Part shown: positions 10,576 through 10,824 of the stretch, piece by piece
How positions within the stretch are numbered: the first letter of the stretch is position 1
How the letters are laid out: each line of letters starts with the position of its first letter
From: a virus
Lineage: Duplodnaviria > Heunggongvirae > Uroviricota > Caudoviricetes
Virus record (IMG/VR): IMGVR_UViG_2690316273_000014
Direction: 5' to 3' (one strand)
DNA length: 10,824 nucleotides
Translations under genes and position numbers: made by a program
Notes under the pieces: generated by a model
Told to the model about the DNA's origin: nothing
The model's database searches: none
Seen by the model: only the letters and a program-made list of their open reading frames with translations

Positions 10576-10824
10576 ATGGTTCGTGCAAACAAACGCAACG
10601 AGGCTCTACGAATCGAGAGTGCGTTGCTTAACAAAATCGCAATGCTTGGAACTGAGAAGACAGCGGAAGCTGTGGGAGTTGATAAGTCGCAGATCAGCAG
10701 GTGGAAGAGGGATTGGATTCCAAAGTTCTCAATGCTGCTTGCTGTTCTTGAATGGGGTGTCGTCGACTGTCAACGACGGATGAAAAGTGATCCACTTATA
10801 TCTCCACCAACGGCCCAATATTGA
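10576..10824 (+). CDS. cII: CII transcriptional activator with divergent, shortened C-terminus (82 aa)
   Basis: From ATG at 10576: MVRANKRNEALRIESALLNKIAMLGTEKTAEAVGVDKSQISRWKRDWIPKFSMLLAVLEWGVVD matches lambda CII as recalled, then continues CQRRMKSDPLISPPTAQY to a TGA at the last 3 nt of the window. The track's upstream ATG at 10516 is not the start. Confidence 0.8.
   Translation: MVRANKRNEALRIESALLNKIAMLGTEKTAEAVGVDKSQISRWKRDWIPKFSMLLAVLEWGVVDCQRRMKSDPLISPPTAQY

Follow-up and report, generated by a model that had tools for sequence, protein, structure and literature searches.

The shortened cII gene at the end of the window, by which we mean the whole stretch of 10,824 nucleotides analysed here, most probably (about 95%) results from a transposition of IS100 into the cII gene of a 434-type prophage. 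This insertional disruption would turn cII into a pseudogene and would amount to an ordinary knockout. The original prediction had noticed that the first 64 residues of the encoded protein match lambda CII and that the sequence then switches; translation as well as alignment agree with this, and the boundaries of the divergent part, 10768–10824, are exact. Its overall reading holds insofar as CII is truncated at residue 64 and broken, but the cause appears to be an IS100 insertion and neither an allele nor a mosaic junction. On this reading, a common insertion sequence has broken the cII gene, and the short cII is no new regulatory variant of the lysis–lysogeny switch.

The chimeric open reading frame (10576–10824, plus strand) codes for 82 amino acids, as had been stated, in place of the 97 amino acids of 434 CII. 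It is composed of the CII residues 1–64 and 18 residues derived from the IS100 end, followed by a TGA stop codon at 10822–10824. The first 64 codons, which make up the 5′ two-thirds of cII (10576–10767), are 100% identical to 434 cII on the DNA and on the protein level, and the encoded residues are the same in 434 CII and in lambda CII. The window follows 434 cII through ...GTCGTCGAC with 10767 as the last shared base. Beyond this position 434 reads GACGACATGG, or GACGACATGGCTCG... in a longer extract of the alignment, whereas the window reads TGTCAACGACGG, which is translated into CQRRMKSDPLISPPTAQY as residues 65–82. The Pfam profile Phage_CII (PF05269) matches the window protein with 115.6 bits (cut-off 21.3 bits), aligning profile positions 1–64 of 91 with residues 1–64; with 434 CII the same profile aligns over all positions 1–91. 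The C-terminal region is therefore incomplete, as the profile positions 65–91, corresponding to residues 65–97, are gone and the 18 IS-derived residues stand in their place. In agreement with this, the CII chains of the PDB align to the window protein only up to residue 64–66, and the identity to 1XWR is complete over residues 1–64. Compared with 434 and lambda CII (PF05269; PDB 1XWR, 1ZS4, 8IGR), the gene has kept its location after cro and nutR and the CII-binding site of pRE in its 5′ end, but with the loss of residues 65–97 it is a disrupted gene and no functional member of the family.

The tail beyond the breakpoint corresponds to the outermost 57 nt of the right, istB-proximal end of IS100, an element of the IS21 family (10768–10824, minus strand, 57/57 identity). 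Taken alone, these 57 bases have 100% matches (E = 7e-21) in 2,955 of 5,426 complete E. coli genomes. These matches amount to 5,846 places, 1,515 of which are on plasmids, and a single genome has up to 25 of them. Among the plasmid records, 1,887 contain the match as well; they come from Escherichia, Yersinia, Shigella, Salmonella, and Klebsiella. Since the 57 bases are identical to thousands of copies, the divergence of the cII sequence is not due to chance or to sequencing noise. In plasmid pPCP1 of Y. pestis the match covers the record positions 1954–1898 and starts at the outermost base of IS100; istA is found at 87–1109 and istB at 1106–1888 of this record, and the 57-nt stretch ends 10 nt outside istB. 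The respective labels in pPCP1 are "IS21-like element IS100 family transposase" and "IS100kyp family helper ATPase IstB", and an E. coli chromosomal copy of IS100 has the same layout.

The fine structure of the tail is also that of a transposon end. It opens with 5′-TG, and the left end of the reference IS100 closes with ...GTTACA. Two terminal repeats ending in ...GATCCAC lie 8–27 and 38–61 nt from the tip, and each of them pairs with the opposite (left) end of IS100. The ends of IS21-family elements carry multiple terminal repeats with an L1/L2–R1/R2 organisation which are bound by IstA (PMC10122671), and the repeats of the tail show this terminal organisation. We suggest that IS100 (1,954 bp, istA–istB) entered between codons 64 and 65 of cII and is inverted relative to cII, with istB and istA expected on the minus strand past the window end. 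The cII frame would then run on into the right terminal repeat of IS100, add 18 unrelated residues and terminate, so that these residues can be regarded as an accidental translation of the right end of IS100. The pPCP1 copy of IS100 has a 5-bp target-site duplication (CAGGG) at its ends. Accordingly, the last five bases before the breakpoint, TCGAC (10763–10767), are predicted to be the duplicated target, and a second copy is expected past the far end of the IS100 insertion.

It had been proposed earlier that the sequence codes for a CII variant with an altered C-terminus or marks a mosaic junction into a different replication module. Lambdoid phages are indeed mosaic, with junctions often located at gene boundaries, and the protein is annotated at NCBI plainly as "CII family transcriptional regulator", which would suit a natural cII allele or a junction into another lambdoid replication module. 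However, the 57 bases are the terminal inverted-repeat region of IS100 from the first base on, they occur on non-phage plasmids of Yersinia, Shigella, Salmonella, and Klebsiella, and the contig goes on in IS100. In BLAST searches against cII of complete E. coli genomes and phage records every match stops at window position 10767, and among the 62 phage records with cII homology none matches beyond query base 268, which is this very position. Likewise, the tail is not shared by the reference genes, as 434 CII ends with ...DDDMARLARQVASILTNKKRPAATERSEQIQMEF and lambda CII is normal, too. As the tail is the IS100 terminus and no phage record continues past 10767, both the allele and the mosaic junction were rejected, and their probability is close to nil.

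The window has its best counterpart in a contig of 211 kb, CYBW01000007.1 of GCA_001283845.1, with 100% identity. That the stop codon coincides with the window end and that the downstream context is missing had been pointed out correctly: the window was evidently cut at gene boundaries, from the ybhC stop codon to the stop codon of the chimeric frame, and this is why the open reading frame and the window end together. Extension past 10824 yielded only 76 further bases (10250–10325 of the CYBW01000007.1 excerpt), which are IS100 with one mismatch to pPCP1 (agcttCAgc in the contig, agcttCTgc in pPCP1). The contig ends 133 nt into IS100, and 132 of these 133 nt are identical to pPCP1. An end about 130 nt into a multi-copy element is the usual mark of a short-read assembly that breaks at a repeat; thus, the downstream context is missing for a technical reason, namely that the assembly broke inside a multi-copy insertion sequence. 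In comparison to the reference IS100 (pPCP1, pCD1, pMT1 and many E. coli and Shigella replicons), the 57 nt of the window and the 133 nt of the contig are identical or near-identical and the TG and the terminal repeats are alike, whereas the present copy shows no more than one end, with istB and istA, the left end, and the 5-bp duplication being expected beyond the contig.

Given that only 133 nt separate the junction from the contig end and that the draft was assembled from short reads, one could imagine a chimeric contig end in which non-adjacent reads of cII and IS100 were joined. Yet cII is joined precisely to base 1 of IS100, as transposition predicts and unlike a random chimera, and contigs ending shortly inside a repeat are the normal sign of a true repeat boundary. 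Moreover, the identical protein has been deposited under three GenBank accessions from 4 contigs, and an assembly artefact is therefore highly improbable. The databases list precisely this 82-aa protein as WP_053880689.1 (CTU45941.1, CTX87552.1, CTZ52872.1), which forms a singleton cluster and stems from just these 4 draft contigs with three separate GenBank accessions.

This protein is named "Regulatory protein CII" or "CII family transcriptional regulator" at NCBI and bears no flag for a truncation by an insertion sequence. The type of event is well known, and the allele is already contained in the public databases, where it passes for a normal CII family regulator. Our analysis may therefore serve as a warning concerning annotation, as the product deposited as an ordinary CII family regulator (WP_053880689.1) is a chimera of 82 aa.

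Apart from the insertion, the window can be assigned by its sequence to a prophage of the phage 434 type, of which it covers the left arm and the immunity region; this prophage is located at the lambda attachment site by ybhC in E. coli. The pectinesterase-family gene ybhC of E. coli (1–1284, minus strand) has its stop codon at the very start of the window (bases 1–3). It is followed by a lambda-type att core GCTTTTTTATACTAA at 1331–1345 (attL, plus strand), and in 434 the attP core is annotated at the matching position. The presence of a lambda-type attL between ybhC and int indicates a prophage integrated at attB-lambda. From the att core up to 10767 the identity to phage 434 (OL657226) is 99.3% across the full arm, and the gene order after the att core is int, xis, exo, bet, gam, cIII, ea10, a 289-aa Nun-like gene, N, hex, cI, cro, and cII. 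Gene by gene, the proteins from int through cro are 95–100% identical to those of 434, and the identity reaches 100% for CI, Cro, N, Hex, and the Nun-like protein. Both the 434-type cI repressor gene (9505–10137, minus strand; 210/210 aa) and the 434-type cro gene (10241–10456, plus strand; 71/71 aa) are intact. The hex gene (9107–9508, minus strand) overlaps the end of cI at 9505–9508; according to the annotation of the 434 record, Hex guards the repressor against RecA-dependent proteolysis.

In phage 434 the 97-aa cII is followed by the oop RNA, which overlaps the 3′ end of cII, by O with the origin of replication, and by P, ren, and the nin genes. An uninterrupted cII seems to be the norm, as it is found in phage 434, in lambda, and in the 83 complete E. 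coli genomes with the prophage arm at ybhC, these being the genomes that hold at least 80% of the stretch from ybhC to cII. The closest complete genome, that of strain EC12 (99.7% identity), contains a cII of 294 bp (97 aa) and then oop, O, P, ren, and ninB. On the other hand, the cII/IS100 junction is found in none of the 5,426 complete E. coli genomes and in no phage record, and there were 0 matches among contigs representing one genome per species, where E. coli is represented by a single genome. As far as these collections tell, the insertion of IS100 into cII is thus a rare event confined to one lineage, while the prophage as such is common.

For what lies past the element, two versions of the event are conceivable. 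We favour a simple insertion, in which the insertion sequence is succeeded by the 3′ end of cII, oop, O, and the remainder of the prophage, and consider it the probable course of events. Possible, although with clearly less than even chances, is a deletion or inversion bounded by IS100 which arose by recombination between two IS100 copies or by an adjacent deletion. In this event, which we likewise see as a tentative scenario, the 3′ end of cII, oop, O, P, Q, and the genes for lysis and morphogenesis would be lost or located elsewhere, and the prophage would be reduced to a remnant from int to the cII fragment. With up to 25 copies of IS100 per E. coli genome, substrates for such a recombination are available, and the prophage already has another deletion, the 98 bp missing at kil/cIII.

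In addition, the far junction is absent from all collections that were scanned. The predicted junction (left end of IS100, 0–10 nt, and GACGACATGGCTCGATTGGC) had 0 matches in the metagenome contigs. For target duplications of 2–9 bp we predicted the open reading frames expected on the far side of a simple insertion and looked up 10 candidates by exact sequence; none of the chimeric frames was present in the protein collection. The bare 31-aa remnant MARLARQ...MEF is found solely in "partial" proteins at contig ends of unrelated assemblies and is uninformative. This absence weighs little against a simple insertion, however, as the DNA collections hold few E. coli draft contigs and open reading frames of 31–46 aa at contig edges are often not called. 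Furthermore, all 20 other genes of the int–cro stretch are intact with 95–100% identity to 434, which speaks against a rearrangement and agrees with a lesion of recent date in a prophage that was functional until recently.

What does the disruption of cII by IS100 mean for the CII protein? The N-terminal HTH region is retained in the 82-aa product, which would lack the tetramerisation helix and the FtsH-targeted tail. In the structures 1XWR and 1ZS4 helix α4 starts, as we assume, around residue 60–65, and the final ~15 residues are presumably flexible. A CII that is cut at residue 64 should therefore fail to tetramerise and fail at pRE, pI, and paQ; very probably the 82-aa CII is inactive as an activator of all three. 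The earlier statement that the C-terminal part of CII matters for oligomerisation and turnover is in line with the titles of three papers, which name the C-terminal domain of CII as a signal for rapid proteolysis (Kobiler et al. 2002), the C-terminal residues as involved in oligomerisation and stability (Datta et al. 2005), and the hydrophobic residues of helix α4 as maintaining the tetramer and directing the lysogenic choice (Parua et al. 2010). Two of the DNA elements on which CII acts have been preserved: the CII-binding site of pRE, TTGC-N6-TTGC, lies intact within the 5′ end of cII (10585–10598, minus strand; annotated as pRE −35/CII site in 434), and the CII-binding site at pI (2698–2711) is likewise intact. 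The CII site of pRE appears to be left without a functional resident activator.

The consequences for the genes downstream of cII depend on transcription through the element. About 2 kb of untranslated antisense IS DNA would now separate pR and nutR from O, P, and Q, and replication and late gene expression would be lowered unless antitermination by N carries RNA polymerase through the insertion sequence. Upstream of cII, boxA (10465–10472) and the nutR boxB stem–loop (10482–10496) are both intact on the plus strand, their positions having been transferred from the 434 annotation by colinear alignment. With an intact nutR, N-modified transcription from pR would enter IS100 and may cross it. 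On the relevant strand of the full IS100 in window orientation we found two weak terminator-like sites, which is no more than in shuffled sequences; the degree of polarity on O and P is therefore uncertain. No promoter-like sites were detected in a scan of the full IS100 in this orientation. We had also considered an outward σ70-like hybrid promoter at the junction, antisense to cro and sense to cI, but dropped it as the scan gave no site.

The cII lesion should change neither the maintenance of lysogeny nor the 434 immunity, as cI, cro, hex, and the operators have remained intact and a repressed lysogen does not transcribe cII. By the same reasoning, an effect on the lysis–lysogeny decision is only to be expected if the prophage can still yield phage.

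Insertions into this part of a lambdoid genome have precedents. The classical polar insertions r14 (IS1) and r32 (IS2) lie in the y–cII region of lambda. A spontaneous IS2 insertion in lambda P was described among the survivors of replicative killing by the prophage (PMC4926192), which shows that insertions in the pR operon can be selected by the host. The IS2 insertion in P of lambda prophages and the present case have in common that an E. coli insertion sequence entered the early rightward operon and inactivated a gene, maybe with reduced expression of O and P. However, the present insertion involves IS100 of the IS21 family, is situated between codons 64 and 65 of cII, and stems from a natural isolate, whereas P::IS2, r14, and r32 were obtained by laboratory selection.

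A second lesion is found in the same arm. By alignment with 434 and EC12, an 11-bp direct repeat, ATCCATTTTTT, is retained in one copy at 6783–6793, and the 98 bp between the two copies of ATCCATTTTTT are missing in comparison to both genomes. The deletion hits kil and cIII on the minus strand (~6746–6921). The ATG of kil is kept, but the frame is shifted after codon 2, and only Kil residues 32–47 remain, out of frame. CIII stops at residue 46 and one additional Tyr, giving 47 aa in place of 54. The complete E. coli genomes match the stretch with the deletion only in two pieces spanning 279 bp and in no case in a single piece; the 98-bp deletion appears to be confined to the lineage of this prophage.

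Two independent inactivating lesions in an arm otherwise identical to 434 fit early decay or domestication of the prophage. With IS100 in cII and the deletion in kil/cIII, it looks like a prophage that was hit by an insertion sequence and is accumulating inactivating lesions, and the insertion in cII can be seen as a routine case of a prophage decaying under the activity of insertion sequences. For the typing of prophages in this E. coli lineage this means that the 434-type prophage at ybhC should be scored as probably defective, with cII disrupted by IS100, kil frameshifted, and cIII clipped. We also considered, with low expectations, two further readings, the prophage being either an inducible, cII-defective 434-type phage carrying IS100 or a domesticated prophage selected by the host. 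The former would imply that the rest of the prophage is intact, that antitermination by N crosses the insertion sequence, and that clear plaques are formed; with a genome of ~49.4 kb the phage would be packageable and could move IS100 between E. coli strains. The latter would imply that the kil frameshift and the cII insertion spare the host from killing, with immunity, Hex, the Nun-like protein, and Red recombination being kept.

Some further observations concern the remainder of the arm. The longest open reading frame of the window in the hex frame reaches upstream to 9580 (158 aa), which may be compared with the remark "wrong start codon" in the 434 record. Just downstream of N lies the AT-rich 289-aa gene (7554–8420, minus strand), whose product is 100% identical to the "Nun C-terminal peptide-containing protein" of 434. 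A profile search with this protein gave no Pfam match; it could be a termination or exclusion factor akin to Nun of HK022. A predicted membrane protein of 188–200 aa is encoded in the b-region, with xis and the zinc-finger gene on either side (3135–3737, plus strand; start of the 434 homologue at 3171). The protein is 98% identical to the "putative membrane protein" of 434 and has no match in Pfam; in strain EC12 the gene is annotated as frameshifted. Finally, at ~2713–2722 the window lacks a 431-bp segment of 434 with the hypothetical gene CPT_434_33. Since the closest complete genome, EC12, is equally devoid of this segment, its absence seems to be an ordinary polymorphism of 434-type prophages rather than a lesion.
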